A program made the position numbers and the translations under genes. A stretch of 63,137 nucleotides of DNA, filler included, from Atractiella rhizophila (Eukaryota), in assembly GCA_021432655.1 (NCBI GenBank). It is 8 parts of 7 records of this genome, joined end to end, with 100 filler letters (N's around TTAATTAATTAA, not from the genome) between each part and the next. Parts side by side here need not be neighbours in the genome. Positions count along the whole stretch, not along the records: positions 25,118 to 37,239 come from MU272012.1; 7 more parts are not named here. The stretch is one strand, 5' to 3'. Below the pieces are notes generated by a model. That model saw only the letters and a list, made by a program, of their open reading frames with translations. It was not told where the DNA came from and searched no databases. How positions within the stretch are numbered: the stretch's first letter is position 1; each line of letters begins with the position of its first letter. Positions 12,463 to 61,312 of the stretch are shown in pieces.

Positions 12463-12562
12463 NNNNNNNNNNNNNNNNNNNNNNNNNNNNNNNNNNNNNN
12501 NNNNNNTTAATTAATTAANNNNNNNNNNNNNNNNNNNNNNNNNNNNNNNNNNNNNNNNNNNN
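12463..12562. other. Artificial contig spacer N44-TTAATTAATTAA-N44 (also 25018-25117, 37240-37339, 43410-43509, 52499-52598, 58783-58882, 61213-61312)
   Basis: Seven identical 100-nt blocks whose core has stops in all six frames; genes are cut at these junctions. Confidence 0.98.
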
Positions 12563-25017: not shown

Positions 25018-25117
25018 NNNNNNNNNNNNNNNNNNNNNNNNNNNNNNNNNNNNNNNNNNNNTTAATTAATTAANNNNNNNNNNNNNNNNNNNNNNNNNNN
25101 NNNNNNNNNNNNNNNNN

Positions 25118-28100
25118 TTTTCAATGGTGCGCAAGGAACTATACGTATCTCTATGGCAAGGATAAGACGTCCGGCTCCCTGACCAAGTACATGAGCAAGG
25201 CCATTCCTGAGAACGTGGAGGAGTAAGTCTTATCAGATTCCTCCCATATAAGCTGATATCAGTCGAAGGATCATCCTTGATGGGGAAATGCTTGTGTACT
25301 TGCCCGAACAGGATAAGTATCTGCCATTCGGTCACCTCAAGACTGCAGCAAAAAGTGAAAATGCAGACCTCTGGGTGTGCTGTACGTTTTCAAACTGAGA
25401 GCTATGCGTCGAAGCTCAACATACCACATCGATTAGTCAAGATATTCGACCTTCTTTGGCTCAAGTCAAAGTCAGGACCTGCTCAAAATCTGCTAACGAA
25501 AAGTCTTCATCAGCGAAAGGCAGCACTCAAAAAATTGATTAAGCCGATGCGTGGAAGGGTAGAGTTCGCTCGCGAAACTCGAGGACGGACCTCAAAAGAC
25601 ATCAAGGAGGAGTTGCAGAGAATTTTAGAGGAATGGTAAGGGGCTCTGACTCGTGCTTGTCACTAATCATATCGGTTTTAGTGGCGAAGGACTTGTTATC
25701 AAGAATCCGAATTCAGCCTATGAGTTAAATGGTCGAAATGAAGATTGGGTTAAGTTAAAGCCTGGTATGTACGATATTCAACTTGATTACGGAAGAAGTG
25801 AATATCAGGGTAGACTATATGGAAGGTTTTGGGGAAACTTTGGATGGGATGGTAGTAGGTGTGTGCAGCAAGGTTCTCGATGCACCCGAATTACGGACTA
25901 AACAAGAGTTGCAGGAGCCTACCACGGAGAAGGCAGACGGGGAGGAATGTATGGATCGTTTTTGGTGGCAATTCTCAAAGACGAAGAAACTGCGACGACG
26001 GAGGATCCTGAGTTAGTCTATCACTTCTTTTTTGGGATAGGCCTAAACGAGGAAAAGATTAGTGACTGTATGCAAAGTTGGAAGCGGTTTTAGTCTAGGC
26101 GATTTTGAGACCATCATGTAAGTGTCTATAGACGTAACATGGTTTACCAATGAGCGTAACAGGGACAAAACTGCCGGCAAATGGAAAGATTACAAGAAAT
26201 CTAAACCTGACTGGCTTATCGCAAAGGATGAAGTGCCTGATGTTTGGATCCATCCTCGCGAGTGTGTTGTATCCTTACATTGTTTCTTCTACTCATGCCA
26301 CTACCCAGTTCCTTTGCAGTTACTGTGAAAGCTGCCGAGATTATCGATAATCGTACGTCAATATTCGCCGAATAGACCTCGTATTTCTTAGGCTAAAGAT
26401 GGAGGCAGTCGATGGATACGGGGCTGGAAAGTGCCTTCGATTTCCGCGTGAGTTTCATTGTGGTTTAAATACATGGGCTCAATGGAAACTCAACGGAAAC
26501 CGTTAGGCTGCACTAATGTTCGATTTGACCCAGACATTCAAGAAATCGACAAACTGCATGGTTCGTGATCCCAAAACAAGTTCGAAACCATTCATTGTCC
26601 TGCAGACTTCTGGGATGTGGCGAACAAAAACCAAAATACCAAACGTGCACTCGGTGATGGCCTAGAGTAAGTTTCTGAGATGACCGCTATCTCGCTTATT
26701 TTGGTTGTTTCTAGTGGTCACAAGGTCAAGAAAAGGAGGCTTAACACGGGAAAGGCTGTGCGAGCAATTTAACTCAATTGATGATACCTCATTCTTGCGA
26801 TAGAAACCTACACTGGCGGCAGCCTTTCGTGGAGCAACAGGTGATGTAACGGCCAAATCCCAATTGTTTACTGGGATGCATTTTTGTAAGTGGGCATATC
26901 AAATGCTTACACCCGTCGGACTCACTGTTTGGTGTCAGGGGTCATTCGAGGTACCAAAGAACACAACAAAGCGGCTCTGGAGACTATGATCTTGGAGAAT
27001 GGAGGAGAAGTTATACAAACGTCAAAATCAGGAGGCAAGCTTGTCAGACTAGTTTGTGACAGCTCCGGATGTGAGCGCCTTGAGACACGATGCTTTTGGA
27101 TACTGACTGTATACAAGTCGCGTTGATCGACGCTCAGATCAGGAAGAATGCGAATGATATTATTCGGCCTGCTTGGATTCTCGATTCCTTGTCCGAAGGG
27201 AAAAGGCAACCCTTTGAAGAGTAGTATAGCTGCTTCCTCTTCTCCAAAGGGAATAAGGATATACTAACCTTGCTTCTAGTTATATGCTTCATTCTGTTGA
27301 CGAAGTGAAGGCGGCATCAGAAGAGGAAGTCGAGGAAGAGACGGAAGACGACGTTCGGCTGGGCAAAAGGGTCGCCATCCAGCAGAACGACGAGGACGAA
27401 AAGGCTCCCACCGATATTAGCGAGCTGAGGCAAAGTCTTCAGGATAATGATCCTTTTGGTATCAATTCCATTGCACTCGACGATCTGGACGACCCCAACA
27501 ACCTGTCGGACGATGAAGCTCCACCTGGCGAATCGGATGAAGAGTCCGATAGTGAGATGAAATGGGTAATGCGAAGAGCAGCCGTAGACAGCGACACTGA
27601 CGACGAAGACGGCATCCAAGTTCAACGAAAGGTATGGCCTCTTCTTCCCTTTGTTTGAAATGGCCTGAGCCATGCACAGCGACATTCAGCTACGGCAGTG
27701 AATGAAGATGAATCCACATCTCCCTCGTCTTCCAAACAAACATCACATGCTGTAGCCCCCGCTGTTGTCGAAGAACAACCTCTGTCGCAAACGTTGCCAG
27801 TATCTTCCAGCGATACTGCGGCGCGTGAGCCTGAAGGCGAAAGTGAAGATGAAGATGAAGACATATTTTCTCGATTTGTGGTCTACTTCGATACGAAGGA
27901 GAACGCCACAAAGAACGGTCTCGAGTCCGCAGCCACGGCTGAGAGCGAAACCTCAACTCGGTGAGCATTGTTGGGGAACGCATTCGTTGCTGAGAGATAT
28001 TGGTAGCTTCAAACGAGCGAAGAAGTGTGTGGAGGAGAAAGGAGGTGTCGTCGTCACGGATCTGAATGCAGAAGGGCTGACTCACGTCGTTCTCTCTCCA

Positions 28101-28386
28101 GACGACAGCTCGCGGTTCGTTTCATTCTTGCATTCTTCCATTGTCTGAATGTGTGCGTACAGGAGAGCAGAATTAGTCAGAAAAACAATGAAGTGGGTTA
28201 ACTGTTATTTCTTCACGAGGCACGACCAGTTTAAACTATTCAACAGGCCAAAACCAAAGCGACTAGTAGTGGTCAAGTGGGTTCTAGATTGTTATAATGA
28301 AGATACCATCTTGTCAGAAACTAGTAAGTCCTGGCATTTTTTCAGGCGTCCGTCTAATGTTTTATTCAGAATACACCCCTCTGTAA
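25118..28386 (+). CDS. LIG4: DNA ligase IV (ATP-dependent, BRCT tail), 5'-partial, many exons
   Basis: NYTYLYG, ILDGEMLVY, VKIFDLL, EGLVIKNP.S.Y..NGRNEDWVKLKPDY, CKVGSGFS, PDVWIHP, LRFPR, two BRCT-like regions; TAA 28384-28386. Confidence 0.93.
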
Positions 28387-28426
28387 TTCTTGAAAGCCAA
28401 TTTATGTCTGATTCCGGTCTCCTAAA

Positions 28427-29284
28427 TTACTTCTCTGGTTCCCATATCATTTCGTCCGCATCCAAAACCTCCTTCCTAGCCTCCGGATCCGCATCACTCC
28501 TCCTCAAAACATCGACTGTTCTAAATCCAAGACTGCTATATAGCTTTTTACCTTCGGGTGTGCAGTGCAAACGAACGGATATCTCTTCACTTTTGGCGCG
28601 ATCCATCCCCCAAGCCATCATCTTGCTACCAAGGCCCTTCCGCTGGTGAGAAGGAGAAATGCAAAGAAGGTTGCAGTACCAGTGAGCTGGTTGTGGTGCT
28701 GGAGGGTTTTGCGCGTTCACCCATGACCATTTCGCCAAAAGGCTCAGGCGATGCTGGGACAGAGAGCGGTCTTCGAACGTCGGTCTTGATTCAAGGTAAG
28801 TTAGTCTTGCGTTCTCTAAATTACGACGATNNNNNNNNNNNNNNNNNNNNNNNNNNNNNNNNNNNNNNNNNNNNNNNNNNNNNNNNNNNNNNNNNNNNNN
28901 NNNNNNNNNNNNNNNNNNNNNNNNNNNNNNNNNNNNNNNNNNNNNNNNNNNNNNNNNNNNNNNNNNNNNNNNNNNNNNNNNNNNNNNNNNNNNNNNNNNN
29001 NNNNNNNNNNNNNNNNNNNNNNNNNNNNNNNNNNNNNNNNNNNNNNNNNNNNNNNNNNNNNNNNNNNNNNNNNNNNNTAGACAGACCATCATTTTCGCTC
29101 TTTTGTCCCGTAAGTATCCATCAAGCTTCAACTCCCAGCTCTTCCGATAATCGTCTGGAAATTCAGCCAGATGAGGATGGAGGTAGAGTTGGAAAGGGTC
29201 GCTGTGAGCATAGCTTGAAGAAGTTAGCTCAGCAAGAGCTTGCAGATCTGATAAAGAACAATCTCGTATTCTGATGTTCCTCAT
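28427..29284 (-). CDS. GNAT N-acetyltransferase (interrupted by gap 28831-29077)
   Basis: HWYCNLLCISPSHQRKGLGSKMMAWG, LHCTPEGKKLYSSLGF. Confidence 0.85.
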   Translation of the reverse strand: MRNIRIRDCSLSDLQALAELTSSSYAHSDPFQLYLHPHLAEFPDDYRKSWELKLDGYLRDKRAKMMVCLXXXXXXXXXXXXXXXXXXXXXXXXXXXXXXXXXXXXXXXXXXXXXXXXXXXXXXXXXXXXXXXXXXXXXXXXXXXXXXXXXXXRRNLENARLTYLESRPTFEDRSLSQHRLSLLAKWSWVNAQNPPAPQPAHWYCNLLCISPSHQRKGLGSKMMAWGMDRAKSEEISVRLHCTPEGKKLYSSLGFRTVDVLRRSDADPEARKEVLDADEMIWEPEK

Positions 29285-29612
29285 TCTACTTCTCCCGTGG
29301 TGAGAGAATATCGATGAAATGGTGGCATTTATTCTTACGTGTCGGAGGGCGATCAAGGTGACTCTTGCTCGCGGCCATCAACGTGTTCAACTTCAAATTT
29401 TCAGATTGATAGACGATTTTAGACAACTAGGGAGCTTCACTTCATTACCATCAGGCTATGAGTCGTTGTTTATCTAACAGTCTTTAGGTCGAATTGAACT
29501 CTAAATTTTCCAGGAAAGGGAATTGCCAACTATTGATCGAAGCGAGCAAATCCTCCACCAAGGTCCAATACTTCATCGAGCGTACACGTGCTCGGATCAT
29601 CTTTCTGGATTC

Positions 29613-31321
29613 ATGGCCTCCCCAAAACCGGTTTACTCTCAAGCGACCATCTACGCGGATGCCAATGATCGCGCAGGGAGGGCATATTGGGACTACGACA
29701 ACCTTTGTGAGTGCGGCGTATAGGCATTGGTATGTAGCTCATGACGGCTTGGAACGAAAGTAATATCATGGGGCGTGATGGAGAACTATGAAATTGTGAA
29801 GAAGGTGGGGGAGAGGGAAGTATTCGGAGGTTTTTCAGGGTGTGGACTTGGAGCATGGAAATACTTGTGTTATAAAGGTGCGCTCTCTCTTTCTCTGACT
29901 GGAAAGCGATCTGGGAGCTTGCACATGAGGCATGCGATGAATTGCAATCCTTTCAACCCCCCTATGTCATCACCACATCACCTTCTGTGGCTGTGACGAA
30001 GTGGAGGCGTGTGGCAGGAGCGAGAGGATCTGACGCTTGATCATATGCAGGTCCTGAAACCCGTAAAAAAGAAAAAGATCAAACGAGAAATTAAAGTGTT
30101 GCAAAACTTACACGGCGGTCCAAACATTATCACTCTCCTGGACGTAGTCCGCGATCCCCAAGTACGTCCCTCATGTTCATTCATTTACGACTCAACAGCT
30201 AAGTGGATCGCTAGTCGAAAACGCCTTCTATTATCTTCGAATATGTGGATAACACAGATTTCAAAGTTCTCTACCCCAAATTTACCGATTATGACGTGAA
30301 TTCTCCTCTTGTTCTCGAACGGACACCTTATCAGTTGCTGCAGGTCCGGTTTTACATGTTTGAGATTCTGAAAGCTCTGGATTATGCTCACTCCAAAGGC
30401 ATAATGCATCGAGATGTAAAGCCCTACAACATCATGATCGATCACAAGAAGCGGAAGGTGGAGTTTCGTTCACTTTAATCATACGTGATTGATGACCTCG
30501 TACAGTTACGTTTGATTGATTGGGGATTGGCTGAATTTTACCATCCCAACACGGAGTATAACGTTCGCGTCTCATCACGACACTATAAGGGCCCTGAGCT
30601 GCTGGTGGATTATCAACTTTATGATTACAGTTTGGACATGTGGTCATTAGGTTGTACCTTTGCAGGAATGGTGTGTCACACTCAGTTCTTTCAGTCCATA
30701 ATTTGAGGCTCTCAATCTACAGATCTTCAGGAAAGATCCTTTCTTCCATGGGCACGACAACTATGACCAATTAGCCAAAATTACGAAGGTGTTAGGGACG
30801 GATGAGCTCTACTCATACCTCGAAAAGTATGAGGTTGAACTCGATCCGCAATTCGATGACATCCTCACTCGGTTCGTACTATTCGTATTGGCGATTTGTT
30901 TTACGAGTCTCGTCATCGCATTACAGATACCAGCGAAAGCCATGGTCACGATTCATCACAACTGAAAATCAGCGCTACATCTCCAATGAAGCCATCGACC
31001 TACTCGATAAACTGTTGAGATACGACCACCAAGAGAGGATCACCGCCAAGGACGCAATGGAGCATCCATTTTTTGGTTTGTGTTTGTGTCGCTGAGACTC
31101 ACTCACTTAGGATTCTTTCTGTTGTATATTAGAGCCAATCAGGCAGCCGGAAAAGCGAGGTCGGCGACCTGCAGCAAAAGAGAATGACAGCTTTTCAGCT
31201 CAGTCGACGACTTCGGAAACCAGCGAGAAGGTGGAGTTGAATAATGGAGGCAACGGTAGGTCTCCCCTTCATTTAGCTACAAGCGGAAGAGAACTGACTT
31301 TGGTATGTGACTGTAGTGTGA
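29613..31321 (+). CDS. CKA1: Casein kinase II catalytic (alpha) subunit, divergent; +1 frameshift at 29807-29811; 3' end approximate
   Basis: [80 protein letters not shown]. Confidence 0.93.
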
Positions 31322-33161
31322 AAGATACGCGCGGTAGAGAGTGTAGCGGTGTTGTGATTGTGAAAGGATAGTACGACGTTGCTCCGCGCTAGAGCAAGAG
31401 GCATTACCATTGTTCCTTTCTCATTCCCCCTCGTTCAAATATGTAGCTGTCATTCTGCAGAGTTTAGGCACATGCGCCATTGAAGTTATGTGACTTATGT
31501 CAGATGAATCGTTTTCTTCGTGAGTTGTTTCATAGCATAGAATAATTGGAACAGACGATTCAATCCACAATCCACCATTCGCACTTCGCGCTGACACCTC
31601 ACAGCCAAAAGTGGTGTCGTAAATAATCTCAACAACCTCTAAGGGTGAGGGAATGGGCGACGATTCGACTTAATTGTGACCACTCCTTGTTAAGTTGCTT
31701 TACCTGGGGCTAATAGTTGCAAATAGGGAACAAGGCAGAGTCAAAGACAAAGGGTTTGTTCAACACCTCACGTGACTGTGCTGGACTTCCAGGATACCTC
31801 CACGCTCTGCACTTGTACTTGTTTATACACAGGTCTGAAATTTCTGAAAGCTCTCCACGTAGTCCATAAATCAAAGATCGAAACGGGGTGAACAGCTGCG
31901 GCGCTGGAGGAAGGATAGCTTCCTCCACGATCCTACGTGACACCAACTTTAGATACGTTTCCTAACTTTCTGCTTTGCCTGTTGCTCTTGTGGAGGTCTT
32001 CAGCTTTGATCTTCGAAAACCGACGCTTGTGCCGGCTTGTGCGGACTCGTGGGATGGACAGTGAAGCTGTAGGGATCTAGGGATCTACGGGTGATCTACC
32101 GCGTATTTGAATATTCGAATATTCGTGCACTGGTCCTCGCTCTTGCAGATCATTTCAAAGCCCTGAACTGGACGAAGCTTTCGTCAGGCCAAGGCTTTGC
32201 AAGGGTGACGCAGTAACGGGAAGGACGGAATTTACACCTGCTTTCACAATGGAAATATATTCCTGCGAGTATTTGAAGCACGAAACAGTATTCCTTATTT
32301 GTTTGCACCGACTTCGTCACCGCAGTTAACTTCGCTATTTTCGATGGCTCTTCTTCCATGTTCCAGCGGGGCTCAAAGGGCGAAACAGCAATGGTGGGCC
32401 AGAACAAACCCCCGTCTTGTCTGTGACGGTGTGCGGTGCTTTAGCTTCCAAGTTGCTCCCCACCAATTTAGTCTGTTTCTTGCACGCCGGGCAAATCCTT
32501 ACATGTGCATCCGCTTGCCTACCACTCCGATATTACTTGCTCTTCAATGNNNNNNNNNNNNNNNNNNNNNNNNNNNNNNNNNNNNNNNNNNNNNNNNNNN
32601 NNNNNNNNNNNNNNNNNNNNNNNNNNNNNNNNNNNNNNNNNNNNNNNNNNNNNNNNNNNNNNNNNNNNNNNNNNNNNNNNNNNNNNNNNNNNNNNNNNNN
32701 NNNNNNNNNNNNNNNNNNNNNNNNNNNNNNNNNNNNNNNNNNNNNNNNNNNNNNNNNNNNNNNNNNNNNNNNNNNNNNNNNNNNNNNNNNNNNNNNNNNN
32801 NNNNNNNNNNNNNNNNNNNNNNNNNNNNNNNNNNNNNNNNNNNNNNNNNNNNNNNNNNNNNNNNNNNNNNNNNNNNNNNNNNNNNNNNNNNNNNNNNNNN
32901 NNNNNNNNNNNNNNNNNNNNNNNNNNNNNNNNNNNNNNNNNNNNNNNNNNNNNNNNNNNNNNNNNNNNNNNNNNNNNNNNNNNNNNNNNNNNNNNNNNNN
33001 NNNNNNNNNNNNNNNNNNNNNNNNNNNNNNNNNNNNNNNNNNNNNNNNNNNNNNNNNNNNNNNNNNNNNNNNNNNNNNNNNNNNNNNNNNNNNNNNNNNN
33101 NNNNNNNNNNNNNNNNNNNNNNNNNNNNNNNNNNNNNNNNNNNNNNNNNNNNNNNNNNNNN

Positions 33162-34529
33162 AGAGTTGTCAAATAGCTCATCCAGCTACCGAAGTAACCT
33201 CTACATCGCGACTAAAAGTCAACACTACTTAGCACTGGTACCGAAAGCGACCATAGACATTACGCTACTGCTCTGAGCATTTTGTTTAGCGGTTATGCTT
33301 ATCATGCTTGGCTCACTCCTACAGTAGCTTAACGCCTAGCTCAAGTTGGAGTATGAAAAGCTCCATACTCATCTCGAGTAGGCAGGGATTGTGGAAGCAT
33401 TAAAACCGATTAACCAGTATCAACAGCACGGGTACCTTCTTTCCTAGAAAGGACTTCTAGACATCTAACTCTCGGAGTTTAATACCTGACTTTCTTGACT
33501 CACACTGTGTGGTAAGGACGTTTCCATGTTGGATTACTGGTGTACAGGTTTGACATTAGTATTTCAACTATTAGGTGGTCGTCGAGTCCCGGGAATATCA
33601 CAGCACTACTCTGCGCTTGCAATATGAGGCACAACCCTACCATTTTAAGTCGGTTAGGGGTTAGTTAGTTTGCATTGACATGCTCCAGTAGTTAGTGCAT
33701 ACTAATTTCACTTGCTTTGAGGTGGAAGGCGAAGAACACTAGCTAGTACTACAACATCCCGAAATGTAGAGCTACGTAATACGGAAACCTCACTCGTATT
33801 AGGTCTCGAAAGTCTTAGAGTTTGTACATTTTGGCCTGGACGTCGTTGACTATTCCACAGGCAAGCTCTTGTTCTCCTCTTAAGTGCAGTATTAGCCATT
33901 TAAACCCCATCTCTTGAAACTTTAGACACAATAGGTGTATAAGCTTCTATTATCTTCCGCAAAAGCTGATCGCTAGGTGAATTGACAACTCAGCATTTAC
34001 TTACTTGTACTCCCTGCATGAACCCCTAGCGCCTGATGCAGGTCCTCTCACTATTACAAACCTGGCGGCACATTCAAAACGTTGTGAAATTAAAGAGCAA
34101 ACTAGAAAAAGAAAAAATGCCCAAAGTCCTGGACGTATACTAGTTCGCAGTCTAGGAGAGCGAGGACGGTGTGCGGAGGTGAAGCAGTGTCGGTGTCTTC
34201 CACTACACCACTACTGTATCCCCCCAACTTTCCTAACGTTAAGTAGCGTACGGAGTACACGTTCGAGGGTCTAGCGAAAGGTCAGTCTCTTTCTCTCTCG
34301 CGTGGAAATATTGTGTTCATAAAGGTACGAGGTTCAGGTGTGGGACTTTTTGGAGGCTTATGAAGGGAGAGGGGGTGGAAGAAGTGTTAAAGTATCAAGA
34401 GGTAGTGCGGGGTACTATAATGAAAGCAAGGTTCGGCAGTACTCGATGTATGGTTACGGATATGCGGCGTGAGTGTTTCCAACAGCATCAGGGTTATACG
34501 GGAGGGACGCGCTAGTAACCGTAGGCGCA
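33162..34529. repeat. Mirror (reversed, uncomplemented) copy of 29653-31020
   Basis: Starts agagttgtcaaatagctc, the backwards reading of ctcgataaactgttgaga (ends 31020); ends ccgtaggcgca, the backwards reading of acgcggatgcc (starts 29653); both 1368 nt. Confidence 0.98.
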
Positions 34530-36064
34530 TACGACCACCAAGAGAGGATCACCGCCAAGGACGCAATGGAGCATCCATTTTTTGGTTTGTGTTTGTGTCG
34601 CTGAGACTCACTCACTTAGGATTCTTTCCGTTGTATATTAGAGCCAATCAGGCAGCCGGAAAAGCGAGGTCGGCGACCTGCAGCAAAAGAGAATGACAGC
34701 TTTTCAGCTCAGTCGACGACTTCGGAAACCAGCGAGAAGGTGGAGTTGAATAATGGAGGCAACGGTAGGTTTCCCCTTCATTTAGCTACAAGCGGAAGAG
34801 AACTGACTTTGGTATGTGACTGCAGTGTGAAAGATACGCGCGGTAGAGAGTGTAGCGGTGTTGTGATTGTGAAAGGATAGTACGACGTTGCTCCGCGCTA
34901 GAGCAAGAGGCATTACCATTGTTCCTTTCTCATTCCCCCTCGTTCAAATATGTAGCTGTCATTCTGCAGAGTTTAGGCACATGCGCCATTGAAGTTATGT
35001 GACTTATGTCAGATGAATCGTTTTCTTCGTGAGTTGTTTCATAGCATAGAATAATTGGAACAGACGATTCAATCCACAATCCACCATTCGCACTTCGCGC
35101 TGACACCTCACAGCCAAAAGTGGTGTCGTAAATAATCTCAACAACCTCTAAGGGTGAGGGAATGGGCGACGATTCGACTTAATTGTGACCACTCCTTGTT
35201 AAGTTGCTTTACCTGGGGCTAATAGTTGCAAATAGGGAACAAGGCAGAGTCAAAGACAAAGGGTTTGTTCAACACCTCACGTGACTGTGCTGGACTTCCA
35301 GGATACCTCCACGCTCTGCACTTGTACTTGTTTATACACAGGTCTGAAATTTCTGAAAGCTCTCCACGTAGTCCATAAATCAAAGATCGAAACGGGGTGA
35401 ACAGCTGCGGCGCTGGAGGAAGGATAGCTTCCTCCACGATCCTACGTGACACCAACTTTAGATACGTTTCCTAACTTTCTGCTTTGCCTGTTGCTCTTGT
35501 GGAGGTTTTCAGCTTTGATCTTCGAAAACCGACGCTTGTGCAGGCTTGTGCGGACTCGTGGGATGGACAGTGAAGCTGGAGGGATCTATATAGGGATCTA
35601 CGGGTGATCCCTGGGTGATCTACCGCGTATTCGAATATTCGTGCACTGGTCCTCGCTCTTGCAGATCATTCAAAGCCCTGGACTGGACGAACCTTTCGTC
35701 AGGCCGAGGCTTTGCAAGGGTGACGCAGTAACGGGAAGGACGGAATTTACACCTGCTTGCACAAGGGAAATATATTCCTGCGAGTATTTGAAGCACGAAA
35801 CAGTATTCCTTATTTGTTTGCACCGACTTCGTCACCGCAGTTGACTTCGCTATTTTCGATGGCTCTTCTTCCATGTTCCAGCGGGGCTCAAAGGGCGAAA
35901 CAGCAATGGTGGGCCAGAACAAACCCCCGTCTTGTCTGTGACGGTGTGCGGTGCTTTAGCTTCCAAGTTGCTCCCCACCAATTTAGTCTGTTTCTTGCAC
36001 GCCGGGCAAATCCTTACATGTGCATCCGCTTGCCTACCACTCCGATATTACTTGCTCTTCAATG
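34530..36064 (+). repeat. Near-identical direct copy of 31021-32549 (CK2 3' end plus intergenic DNA)
   Basis: Both start tacgaccaccaagagagg and end cttgctcttcaatg; scattered SNPs and small indels (32070-32125 vs 35579-35640). Confidence 0.97.
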
Positions 36065-36136
36065 GTATAAAAGACACTGCTAGCGGCCTTCTTCCCTATT
36101 TACGACCTTTCGTCTTATCGTCATCACGTCAACGAG

Positions 36137-37239
36137 ATGGTCTCTTTCAAGTCCATCGCACTCTCTGCTTCCTTCGCTGCAGCAGTCTCTGCTGAATCTC
36201 TTGCCGACTGTTTGACAGCGGATTCCAATCTCGAGGTATTCACTCCATCCTCTGCAGATTGGGAGACCGTTATCACTCCCTTCAACAAGCGTCTCCTCAG
36301 TACGTATCCGAACCTTTCGCGTCGAGCGTGAGCTCATGCAGCGAACAGACACCTTCATTCCTGCCGCATTAGTGAAGCCTGCCAACGCTGAGGGTGTCTC
36401 CACCGCGGTCAAGTGTGCTGCCGCCGCTGGGGTGCATGTTTCTCCTCGTTCGGGAGGACACAGCTACGCTGGTTTGTATCCTAGCTCGTGAGAGGGGTCA
36501 TATGGATCTAAAGAAATATCGCCTTGTCTACAGCTGCTGGTCTCGGAATGAGGAATGGATCCCTTGTCGTCGATACTTCGAGGATGAACCACGTTTCCGT
36601 CGACTCTAACGGCGTCGCCACTGCTGGAACTGGTACCCTTTTGGGTGATTATGCCCTCACTATCGGGCTTGAGGGATGGGCCATGGCTCATGGCACTTGG
36701 TATGTTATTCTGCCACAGTGACATCAGCTTCCTGATGAGCGAGGTCAGCCCAACAGTTGGTATTGGAGGTCACGTCGGATATGGTGGATATGGCTTGGAC
36801 AGCCGCCTGTGGGGCTTGGCTCTCGACCACGTTATTGAGGTGAAGCGGCTCCTCCATACTCTAGTCCCAAGCTGATGCAGAATCGAAGGCTGAGACTGTT
36901 CTCGCTTCTGGAGAGATCGTCACAGTCAACAAGGACACGAACCCCGACCTCTTCTGGGTTAGTAGTTCCGTTTGCGTTATGCTCGAGGTTAGGTTGACTG
37001 TACACATAGGCTATTCGTGGTTCTGCCGTCTCTTTCGGTATCACCACTCAGTACAAGTTCCAGACTCATCCTGCTCCGGAGGTAACCATCTGCTTTTGTC
37101 CTTTCAGAAGTAGAAGTAACTCGATGGTGTTCAGACTTCCATTGAGTTTATCTACGCATACACGTGGGTCTGTCCCTTCGATCATTCATCTTACCATCTG
37201 ACACTTTCGTCCGCGCTGCAGTCCTGATAACGTTGATCA
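36137..37239 (+). CDS. Secreted FAD-linked oxidase (berberine-bridge-like/AA7), 3'-truncated
   Basis: Signal peptide MVSFKSIALSASFAAAVSA; PFNKRL; RSGGHSY; AHGT|CPTVGIGGHVGYGGYG; DLFW|AIRG; His and Cys expected for bicovalent FAD. Confidence 0.9.
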
Positions 37240-37339
37240 NNNNNNNNNNNNNNNNNNNNNNNNNNNNNNNNNNNNNNNNNNNNTTAATTAATTAANNNNN
37301 NNNNNNNNNNNNNNNNNNNNNNNNNNNNNNNNNNNNNNN

Positions 37340-40300
37340 GACAGGAGCTGTCGACAGGTCAGAACGCTTCAAAAGGGTAACGCGAACTTACGAGGCGGTG
37401 GAGTGTTCACTATTTCCCAGATGTCAGCGCGGCAGAGAAAGAATCAAGCATTATCGCACCAATGGCAGATGATACAATCTGCAGGACCATCAGCTTTTTA
37501 AATGCATTTGGCCTTGACACGTACATTGAGCATGTATTTGGGATCGTGAATCGGTTCCAGCGATTTAAGGCTAAAAAATCTCCCGCATGCAGCAGCGTGA
37601 ACGCTTGCCGTATCGGTCAACTTCACATTTTTTTTACATCTAACAGTTCAGAAACTCACTCTCCACTTAGGAAAGTAACTCGAACATGCCTCTCAAGGGC
37701 AACTTTCTGAAATTGCTCAATAAGCCAATTACGCTCCTTCTTATGATTCGATGCTGTCCAACTAGAGAGAAAGCATCAGAGTTCAGCTGGATATTCCGAT
37801 AGTCACATACTGATCATTCAGATCGTCCAGTAACTCGGCCTAAGCTTTCTGGATTGAGCGCCAACACAATGGCACGAAAACACAGACCTCTTTATTGAAT
37901 TTGTTGACAAAGCCGCCCAGCCCCAACGTTCCAGTTTTGGCGAGCATCGTAATGGGATTGTACTTGTTTTCGAGTGCTGACCTACAAGAGCAACGTTAGG
38001 GATCCTTTAGGTTGTGAAAACGAGTCCATACTCCAGAAAGTTCATTCGAGGATAAGCTATTGGGACTCCCAGTTGAACAACTAGGTGCTTGGTGGAAGGG
38101 GGTAAGCTCTGGTGTAGGGTATTGAAGACTCGGTCATAGGTTTCCTCCGAACAGATCTTCTCTTTCTTCCTGCAGATTCAAACTTGTCAGAGACTTGTAA
38201 ATTGGAAAGAAATTTACCTCTCGGAGCGGCAGTCCAGCATCAACAATTGGACATTGGGTCCTAGTGGGGCGAGCCACGAGTAGCTGCGGAATGGAACATA
38301 ACCGCTTTCTACAAAGTAAACGTGTTCAGTTCCTGTTCTTCTGTCATATGGGAAAGAAGAGACNNNNNNNNNNNNNNNNNNNNNNNNNNNNNNNNNNNNN
38401 NNNNNNNNNNNNNNNNNNNNNNNNNNNNNNNNNNNNNNNNNNNNNNNNNNNNNNNNNNNNNNNNNNNNNNNNNNNNNNNNNNNNNNNNNNNNNNNNNNNN
38501 NNNNNNNNNNNNNNNNNNNNNNNNNNNNNNNNNNNNNNNNNNNNNNNNNNNNNNNNNNNNNNNNNNNNNNNNNNNNNNNNNNNNNNNNNNNNNNNNNNNN
38601 NNNNNNNNNNNNNNNNNNNNNNNNNNNNNNNNNNNNNNNNNNNNNNNNNNNNNNNNNNNNNNNNNNNNNNNNNNNNNNNNNNNNNNNNNNNNNNNNNNNN
38701 NNNNNNNNNNNNNNNNNNNNNNNNNNNNNNNNNNNNNNNNNNNNNNNNNNNNNNNNNNNNNNNNNNNNNNNNNNNNNNNNNNNNNNNNNNNNNNNNNNNN
38801 NNNNNNNNNNNNNNNNNNNNNNNNNNNNNNNNNNNNNNNNNNNNNNNNNNNNNNNNNNNNNNNNNNNNNNNNNNNNNNNNNNNNNNNNNNNNNNNNNNNN
38901 NNNNNNNNNNNNNNNNNNNNNNNNNNNNNNNNNNNNNNNNNNNNNNNNNNNNNNNNNNNNNNNNNNNNNNNNNNNNNNNNNNNNNNNNNNNNNNNNNNNN
39001 NNNNNNNNNNNNNNNNNNNNNNNNNNNNNNNNNNNNNNNNNNNNNNNNNNNNNNNNNNNNNGGTCTTGCCAGTGTCCGACTGAAAGACCCATGGACCACG
39101 ATTAGTTTTATACGCGACAGTCAGAAAAGAAAAACTGATGTTACAGGACTGTCACACTGTGTCCCCAACGGGTGTCGACGTTACCGAAAAGTCGCCCCTC
39201 AGCTGTGACGAAGAAAGTTAACAGGCTAGGTGAAACCTTACTGGAAGAATTCTCCGTAACCCCCGAAATTAGCGTTCCTCTTTGTGGTCTGTCAAAGCGG
39301 ACGTTGCCCCTCTGGCGTAAGTTCGCTAAGCACCATTCAAATTCCTCGTCCTTCAACACATACGTCCTCTTTGCTCAGACGTATCATCACGTGCGGATGG
39401 CACGAAGCGCGATCGCAATTCTTGGCACGGGAAGGATTGCATGAACTAATTGTCGAAAACAACTCTTGATACGACGTTTTGAAATGATCGACCGCGTCAA
39501 TCCATCGAACCGACGAAGAAAACTCACGTTAATCCGATAATTCCACATCCTCTCCTCTTGTACAAGTGGAATCTCCATCCTGAATCTCCAGAAAGAGTTC
39601 GAACCGCTGGTGGACCTGAATTCTTTGATTTTTTGCCCCGTTATATCTACGGCAGATTCTGGCCTTTGCGAGTCGAAAAGAGTGAGGTAGGGATGACGCG
39701 AGTAGTCTGAGTGGTTGTCGGAGGTGACTATCATGGCGTAGCCGATCCAGATCGGTCTTTCTGAGTAAACTATCGAGTCGTACCTGCCAACCAAGAGTTC
39801 AAGCGTTCAAACATTATAGTTGTTCAAGAGATGTAACGCACTTCAACATCGGTCCACACCTGCACACCAAAAAATAATTAAGTCAGTACGCATTCTAGAG
39901 CAATTTTGAAGGTGGTTGCGACTACAACTCGCCCATAGCTCACAGCAAGACTGTGATGAGCGACAACAAAGACAACGCCTTCCCAATTCCGGAAATTTGT
40001 ATCAGGACTCACATGAATTGCAGTCGAGGCTGAGTTGTCCCCCTCTTAACCCCACCACCAGCTCCAGGAATTTGACCTTCATCAACTGTAGCTGGAGGTC
40101 TATAATTTGGCACTTCATAGCCAGTAGTTCCGTCAATTGTTTTAGGGATCTGATCTGTTGGCAATCGAGGAAGTTCTGGTCTGGTAGGAGATGTGGGAGA
40201 TTGTCCGTAATCTTCATCATCGTAGGGCAAGACCTAAAGTAATTCAGGTTGCGGAATATTGATGTCAGTTAAAGAGAAATTACTTCGGCCTGAGGACGAC

Positions 40301-43134: not shown

Positions 43135-43509
43135 CTTGAATCTTTACTTTCTTTAAAAGTTGAAGAAATGAAGGATCGTTTCTTGTGATGAGAGTTGAGT
43201 AGTGAAAGTGATCTGATTCCCCTGGGATGAAAAAGTCTCCTGGACGATGCTGGACTAGAAACGAGGGTGGCTCTGCCGAGGGCTTGGAAGGACGAGTGCT
43301 ACCTGGCTCTGTCTCACGACTCGTCAATTTTGTCCACAGCGCCGCAAAGAAAACTCACAAAAGTTGAGAACAAAGTGGGCTCTGGGAGAAGCACAAGGGC
43401 GACAGGCTTNNNNNNNNNNNNNNNNNNNNNNNNNNNNNNNNNNNNNNNNNNNNTTAATTAATTAANNNNNNNNNNNNNNNNNNNNNNNNNNNNNNNNNNN
43501 NNNNNNNNN

Positions 43510-52498: not shown

Positions 52499-52598
52499 NN
52501 NNNNNNNNNNNNNNNNNNNNNNNNNNNNNNNNNNNNNNNNNNTTAATTAATTAANNNNNNNNNNNNNNNNNNNNNNNNNNNNNNNNNNNNNNNNNNNN

Positions 52599-55135: not shown

Positions 55136-56487
55136 GAACGAGTTGCATTCCAACAGTACTTTTATGGATAAGAAACAAGGGACTACTAGTATTCTGTGAT
55201 GGTGCCTTCTCGTCAAGAAGGCATGTCTTATGTCGTGACGGCAATCGAAATGCTACGGCATAACATTTGTTCCCGCTTGCCGTTGTTGTTGTTGGACAAC
55301 AAGACATCATTTCTTTGTTATTTTTCGGCTCCTGATAAATAACTTCTTTCGCCATCTTTGTGACAACAAGAGTAGATTTTTCGAAGCTCGATGGCACCTC
55401 CAGCACCCCCGCCGACGCCAGCATCTCCTTTATTCAGGGACGTCCCTCAGCGCAACACCAACCGACAGCCCCTTCCAACGCAGTTCTCGACTCGACAAGC
55501 TCGCAAAATCTCATTGTCGAAGGCTCCTCTTCGTGTATTCAGTTACTGCGGGGCAACATGCTTCAACAGCGACCCGGTCGAAGATGACTGGAGCATGGTT
55601 AGCCGATCTGATCAACAGGAACAAAATGCCCAGACGACCGTTCCTCATACGAAGCTGCCATCCTCGGAGTCTCAAGCGGACATTCAACAAGCTACGTCTA
55701 ATTCTCACTCAGATCTGCCTGAAACGATTGTTGCCTTGCCTTCCCCGTCAACGTCTCCTCATACCAACTCAACCTCCGCTCAAACAAAGAGGTCTCCAGA
55801 TCCAACGGCGAGAACGAGTTGCATTCCAACAGTACTTTTATGGATAAGAAACAAGGGACTACTAGTATTCTGTGATGGTGCCTTCTCGTCAAGAAGGCAT
55901 GTCTTATGTCGTGACGGCAATCGAAATGCTACGGCATAACATTTGTTCCCGCTTGCCGTTGTTGTTGTTGGACAACAAGACATCATTTCTTTGTTATTTT
56001 TCGGCTCCTGATAAATAACTTCTTTCGCCATCTTTGTGACAACAAGAGTAGATTTTTCGAAGCTCGATGGCACCTCCAGCACCCCCGCCGACGCCTGCAT
56101 CTCCTTTGTTCAGGAACGTCCCTCAACGCAACACCAACCGACAGCCCCTTCCAACGCAGTTCTCGATTCGACAAGCTCGCAAAATCTCATTGTCGAAGGC
56201 TCCTCTTCGTGTATTCAGTTACTGCGCGGCAACATGCTTCAACAGCGACCCGGTCGAAGATGACTGGAGCATGGTTAGCCGATCTGATCAACAGGAACAA
56301 AATGCCCAGACGACCGTTCCTCATACGAAGCTGCCATCCTCGGAGTCTCAAGCGGACATTCAACAAGCTACGTCTAATTCTCACTCAGATCTGCCTGAAA
56401 CGATTGTTGCCTTGCCTTCCCCGTCAACGTCTCCTCATACCAACTCAACCTCCGCTCAAACAAAGAGGTCTCCAGATCCAACGGCGA
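55136..56487 (+). repeat. Head-to-tail tandem duplication, 2 x 676 nt (55136-55811, 55812-56487)
   Basis: Both units start gaacgagttgcattcc and end tccagatccaacggcga; about six substitutions seen. Confidence 0.96.
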
Positions 56488-58782: not shown

Positions 58783-58882
58783 NNNNNNNNNNNNNNNNNN
58801 NNNNNNNNNNNNNNNNNNNNNNNNNNTTAATTAATTAANNNNNNNNNNNNNNNNNNNNNNNNNNNNNNNNNNNNNNNNNNNN

Positions 58883-61212: not shown

Positions 61213-61312
61213 NNNNNNNNNNNNNNNNNNNNNNNNNNNNNNNNNNNNNNNNNNNNTTAATTAATTAANNNNNNNNNNNNNNNNNNNNNNNNNNNNNNNN
61301 NNNNNNNNNNNN

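Follow-up and report, generated by a model that had tools for sequence, protein, structure and literature searches.

The question that this locus raises is how 1368 nt lying directly to the right of an assembly gap come to spell part of a protein kinase gene backwards on the same strand, and whether such a segment could belong to the genome at all. It lies in a window (the whole stretch of DNA that was analysed) of 63,137 nucleotides from Atractiella rhizophila. A preliminary description of the window had matched the segment, read in reverse, to an upstream one at both ends and at several internal blocks. The two segments are as follows.

33162..34529, no strand assigned: the mirror, a CK2 segment running backwards and not complemented (reversed identity, k-mer direction, no protein signal)
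29653..31020, plus strand: the forward twin of the mirror (1367/1368 identity to reversed 33162-34529)

When 33162-34529 was reversed without complementing and aligned along its full length with 29653-31020, 1367 of the 1368 positions were equal, and the match therefore extends over the whole segment. There is exactly one substitution, where at least one had been noted: a C at 30199 faces a T at 33983. The same two strings gave control identities of 24.6% when compared directly, 26.6% when only complemented and 0% as reverse complements, and the probability of the mirror match arising by chance at one offset is about 1e-820. An inverted repeat or an inversion was ruled out by the 0% identity of the arms as reverse complements. 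A mirror repeat of the H-DNA type was also considered. Such triplex-forming repeats are short homopurine-homopyrimidine tracts with adjacent arms; the segment shares with them the reversed symmetry on the same strand, but unlike them it is 1368 nt long, mixes coding with intron sequence and is separated from its other arm by 2141 nt, the gap included, and this type was ruled out on those grounds.

The window carries 18 N runs, 14 of which belong to seven 100-nt linkers, each made up of 44 N, the 12-nt motif TTAATTAATTAA and a further 44 N; the motif stops all six frames. The remaining four N runs are sized gaps of 247, 612, 698 and 25 N. The window is a chain of at least eight small unplaced scaffolds joined into one record, and because these were concatenated via linkers, gene order across the linkers is meaningless. 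A related but different all-frame stop spacer is documented in the available part of the aweMAGs preprint. The elements that delimit the mirror are listed here.

12463-12562, 25018-25117, 37240-37339, 43410-43509, 52499-52598, 58783-58882 and 61213-61312: the seven identical linkers
25118..37239, no strand assigned: the small scaffold holding the mirror, bounded by 100-nt linkers
32550..33161, no strand assigned: 612 N, a sized gap that separates the left contig of the scaffold from the right one (N-run table)

Scaffold 25118-37239 is gapped at 28831-29077 as well as at 32550-33161; its left contig is 29078-32549 and ends at a polymorphic site. A minor observation concerns the first of these gaps.

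28427-29377, minus strand: GNAT acetyltransferase frame (Pfam Acetyltransf_7, Acetyltransf_1, Acetyltransf_10)

This frame spans the 247-N gap and stays in one frame throughout, so that the size estimate of that gap is at least frame-compatible.

The forward twin lies inside a recognisable gene: it begins about 40 nt past the ATG and reaches as far as the last large coding exon.

29613..31321, plus strand: casein kinase 2 alpha (CK2 alpha) gene, forward copy, with several short introns (tblastn, PDB, Pfam)

The earlier assignment to CK2 was borne out, as the best solved-structure (PDB) matches of the exon frame are CK2 alpha chains (E 1.3e-30) and Pfam Pkinase is found in the gene (E 5e-16). 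The closest named protein found, P0007, whose source label is Atractiella rhizophila, aligned by tblastn in four blocks at 29613-30188, 30215-30673, 30723-30875 and 30925-31092, the final two being 98% and 100% identical. This match points to a basidiomycete close to Atractiella. The forward copy of the CK2 alpha gene is the real one. Its final two introns (31076-31132 and 31256-31316) and its stop, which ends at 31321, were located by fitting spliced contigs of two public sequencing runs, X5 and X3, to the right-hand copy and shifting the positions by the 3509-nt offset; since the X5 and X3 contigs skip GT..AG introns they were taken as RNA-derived. It was further observed that P0007 stays 100% identical through 31092, which is 17 nt inside the intron 31076-31132; these 17 nt, 31076-31092, correspond to 34585-34601 in the right copy. 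The public gene model of P0007 probably lacks the final two introns as well as the true C-terminal tail, which ends at 31321.

The preliminary description had also held that the mirror would be missed by standard BLAST and by six-frame translation, and this proved to be the case. The pair was not reported by a self-megablast of the window on both strands, and tblastn with P0007 gave no match at E<=1e-3 in the mirror as written, as against four blocks in the forward copy; after reversing the mirror the four CK2 blocks returned. Likewise, the four longest frames of the mirror as written matched 0 Pfam families, in contrast to two forward exon frames of the CK2 gene, which matched Pkinase. When the reversed window was compared with the window by megablast, the mirror pair was the only match in 63 kb, and at word size 11 the reversed-window search otherwise returned only local mirror palindromes of 16-28 nt with E>=0.02.

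The direction in which the segment reads could also be scored independently of its twin. For each stretch of 400 nt we took the difference between forward and backward readings under a strand-symmetrised Markov model, which was trained on the window leaving out the tested stretch, its twin and its duplicates. All five stretches from the mirror scored between -9 and -15, while the forward twin scored +8 to +14 and the other 271 stretches had a mean of +8.1 to +9.0 (SD 4.3-5.0) with a lowest value of -3.8 to -5.0, depending on K. The mirror is thus the only strongly negative stretch in the window by this leave-one-out score. Its negative score is due to its dinucleotides, the TA/AT ratio being 1.64 in the mirror as against 0.61 in the twin and 0.64 in the rest of the window. 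A scan of the right-hand edges of gaps, which had been proposed as a check for further cases, was made at the 11 gap and linker edges of this window: 33162 was flagged (-7.7 for 150 nt, -12.4 for 300 nt), whereas none of the remaining ten was, so that the error is not recurrent within the window.

Two other low-scoring places were examined as candidates for a further mirror and rejected. The flanks of the 698-N gap at 38364-39061, that is 38064-38363 and 39062-39361, scored -3.2 and -3.3 (300-nt), which is within background; no reversed twin of these flanks was found and the lengths of their stop-free frames do not favour a reversed reading. The stretch 36940-37239 scored -3.4, likewise within background, and is covered with 0 differences by contigs of X1 and X2, two further public runs.

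The borders of the mirror point to the kind of event that produced it. As first described, the mirror follows the 612-N run 32550-33161 without a base in between, its first base being 33162, and its end at 34529 directly abuts a direct copy of the sequence that follows the twin in the left contig.

34530..36064, plus strand: direct copy of 31021-32549, 98.2% (megablast, difference count)
36065..37239, plus strand: unique continuation of the right contig, with a spliced FAD_binding_4 gene (Pfam, spliced contig)

Megablast aligned 31020-32549 with 34529-36064 at 98.2% over 1538 columns. The seamless continuation into 34530 that had been claimed for the reversed segment was recovered, as the sequence from 34530 onward equals that from 31021 onward in the same direction at 50/50, 199/200 and 996/1000 positions. 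The border between mirror and direct copy is ambiguous by one base because the base at 34529/34530 fits both readings. Since the mirror ends where the direct copy begins, reversing it in place gives about 2.9 kb that are colinear with the left contig: the right contig then follows 29653-32549 and is unique from there to 37239. Restored in this way it is an ordinary contig that covers the CK2 alpha gene a second time, together with about 1.5 kb downstream. The direct copy contains the 3' end of CK2 (stop ending at 34830), the intergenic sequence and the first part of the following gene, and differs from the left copy at 16 sites (12 substitutions and 4 indels), 13 of which cluster in 31998-32328. 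The next gene runs from about 35591 onward; Pfam PF01565 (FAD_binding_4) was found at 36216-36491 (E 4e-7), and a spliced X5 contig spans 35591-36956 with five GT..AG joints within 36299-36956.

We compared 33162-37239 with the contig sets of four of the five matching public runs. The run sequences are Logan contigs, which drop variants; X1 and X2 come from one sample, which may be the very sample behind the assembly. In all four runs, the contig that fits from 34529 rightwards carries a loose left end, the 30-letter consensus of which equals window positions 30990-31019, that is the forward gene and not the mirror. In X1 this can be seen over a long distance, a contig of 3830 nt extending leftwards from 34740 unbroken, with only its final 212 nt matching the window as written. 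The sequence to the left of the 34529 point in these contigs is the forward one. However, at 34629 the contigs that cross 34529 have a T, as the left copy does, so that their origin may be the forward locus at 31020/31021; on their own, then, they leave room for a second, mirrored copy. Depth was 0 in all ten bins over 33162-34521 in each of the four runs, although absence from contig sets proves nothing, while X1 and X2 cover all 20 bins over 34522-37239. The word-index shares (0.56 for X1 and 0.53 for X2, the non-mirror part being 0.66 of the stretch) would fit a complete absence of the mirror's words, but are no test of it.

These observations bear on whether the mirror could be real DNA, in other words a kilobase-scale reversed copy of a gene on the same strand, generated by a copying process of unknown chemistry. 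To our knowledge, every polymerase copies its template into an antiparallel complementary strand, so no templated process that we know of would yield a reversed copy on the same strand. Moreover, the border of the mirror coincides to the base with the edge of an assembly gap, its reversal in place restores colinearity with the neighbouring contig, and a second example was not found in the window. Nothing speaks positively for real mirror DNA; all that could be said in its defence is that the forward copy may be the source of the contigs that cross 34529, and that missing cover in contig sets proves nothing. We regard a real mirror as vanishingly improbable, and it is practically certain that the segment is an artefact of one kind or another and no real feature of the genome. 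This agrees with the preliminary description, which had favoured an orientation bug over biology: the gap-edge start, the restored colinearity, the backwards k-mers and the lack of coding signal all fit such a bug, as does the leftward continuation of the run contigs in forward letters, with the proviso that these may come from the forward locus itself.

If the mirror is an artefact, the right contig could still represent either a second allele of the CK2 region or a second genomic copy of it. False duplication, or haplotig redundancy, occurs at the gap edges of heterozygous short-read assemblies. The present arrangement resembles it in that two contigs of one locus, 98-99.9% identical, stand in tandem around a gap, and in that the end of the left contig falls on a polymorphic indel at which the run contigs break as well. 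Ordinary false duplications are in the right orientation, however, whereas here a portion of the redundant contig has been reversed in addition. At the 16 differing sites, the X1 and X2 contigs are a mosaic of the letters of the two copies, with left-copy letters at 34629, 34771, 34823, 35668, 35692 and 35765 and right-copy letters at the rest; at 34771 in X1 the left-copy letter stands beside a right-copy contig. X1 and X2, although from one sample, differ at the 11-nt indel 35602-35612. The contigs of both break at 36064/36065, which corresponds to the left contig's end, beside a 6-nt indel at 36093.

Over the repeated part the word depth was 240 in X1 and 328 in X2, depth being no copy number, and over the unique part 36531-37239 it was 193-220 in X1 and 267-382 in X2. 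The repeated part is thus not at doubled depth (240 versus about 390 expected if doubled), which is only a hint. It was also observed that at 36445-36560 X1 and X2 each hold two 116-nt contigs that differ at 8 positions. The depths of this two-allele bubble, 76.9 and 112.4, sum to a value close to the flanking 193; 36445-36560 is a heterozygous two-haplotype site and fits a dikaryotic or diploid source.

A true tandem duplication of the CK2 region, in which the first 1368 bases of the second copy would still have been mis-written, would account for the positive sized gap of 612 N that the scaffold keeps between the copies and for the 16 differences in the direct part, and the 3509-nt offset would place the start of the unit inside or near the previous gap at 28831-29077. 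Against it stand the undoubled contig depth over the repeated part (again a hint, as depth is no copy number), the bubble at 36445-36560 that sums to the flanking depth, the unbroken run of the 3830-nt X1 contig leftwards from 34740, and the mosaic letters together with the X1 versus X2 difference at the 11-nt indel, which behave as alleles would. We therefore consider a true duplication unlikely and a single heterozygous locus that was assembled twice probable; the two contigs are probably alleles, and 34530-36064 is probably the other allele of the same locus and hence redundant. The 612-N gap sits oddly with one locus because contigs that overlapped by 1.5 kb before extension imply a negative scaffolder distance. 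This positive gap, which a single locus leaves unexplained, reflects either a poor gap estimate or a real tandem duplication. Even with a true duplication, the orientation error remains an error.

If one heterozygous locus was indeed assembled twice, the mirror could have arisen as follows. The locus would have given two overlapping contigs, the left one 29078-32549 and the right one continuing to 37239, which would have been left unmerged by the scaffolder and set in tandem with a sized gap; in the right contig, the leftmost 1368 bases would then have been written in the wrong order. By one route, the contig would have been extended leftwards, the extension being stored in the order of growth, with the contig-adjacent base first, and prepended unreversed. 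By another, a piece from the opposite strand would have been complemented where reverse-complementing was needed. Both routes give the identical string. In the written order, the base matching 31020 adjoins the gap and the base matching 29653 adjoins 34530; this is the order in which bases would be added by a leftward walk from 34530, and the observed text would result if they were prepended unreversed. The single mismatch at 30199/33983, taken with the 16 differences in the direct part, suggests that the right contig, the mirror piece included, was assembled from reads in its own right instead of being copied over from the left contig. The step and the tool behind the error are inferred.

The reversal might alternatively have been introduced after assembly, through manual finishing, through editing or submission of the record, or through data handling. 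The record has clearly been post-processed, its scaffolds being joined by stop-codon linkers, and the string alone cannot date the reversal. However, one border of the block is exactly the left end of a contig, next to a sized gap, and the other lies inside the contig where there is no further landmark. This fits end extension better than a random edit, and everything else in the window, the remainder of the right contig included, reads forwards. A post-assembly reversal seems quite unlikely to us, and we favour an origin during extension or merging of contig ends, which is rather probable.

A literature search returned no report of reversed but not complemented blocks in assemblies or of a bug that produces them, which is not proof of absence. 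Going by the parts of the papers available, those on reversal without complementation, among the matches listed, concern designed controls, and in a search that combined mirror repeats, assembly error and gaps none was relevant by title or abstract among the matches listed. The accessible text of the Dfam benchmark (PMC3531169) describes reversal without complementation as the source of a non-biological decoy. As far as that text goes, the mirror resembles such decoys in being the product of the same string operation, in which composition is kept and each dinucleotide XY becomes YX, and in that homology is destroyed for BLAST and for translation; unlike these decoys, which are deliberate and labelled, the mirror bears no label and directly adjoins real sequence within a genome record.

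The mirror has no biological significance and matters for data quality alone. Neither BLAST nor read mappers nor gene finders can see a block that is reversed but not complemented. In the present case such a block conceals a false second copy of CK2 alpha, and a public record contains 1.4 kb of nonsense as a result. Should a gap-extension tool be to blame, other right-hand gap edges, in this assembly and in others produced by that tool, may share the defect. The leave-one-out k-mer direction score detects reversed blocks without needing a forward twin.

One other duplication was seen in the window. A 676-nt unit is present as a head-to-tail tandem copy at 55136-55811 and 55812-56487, with 6 substitutions and no indel between the copies. 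It lies in long Ser/Pro-rich frames, and 676 is not divisible by 3. This tandem may be a second false duplication, made from butt-joined ends of heterozygous contigs, or a real recent duplication.
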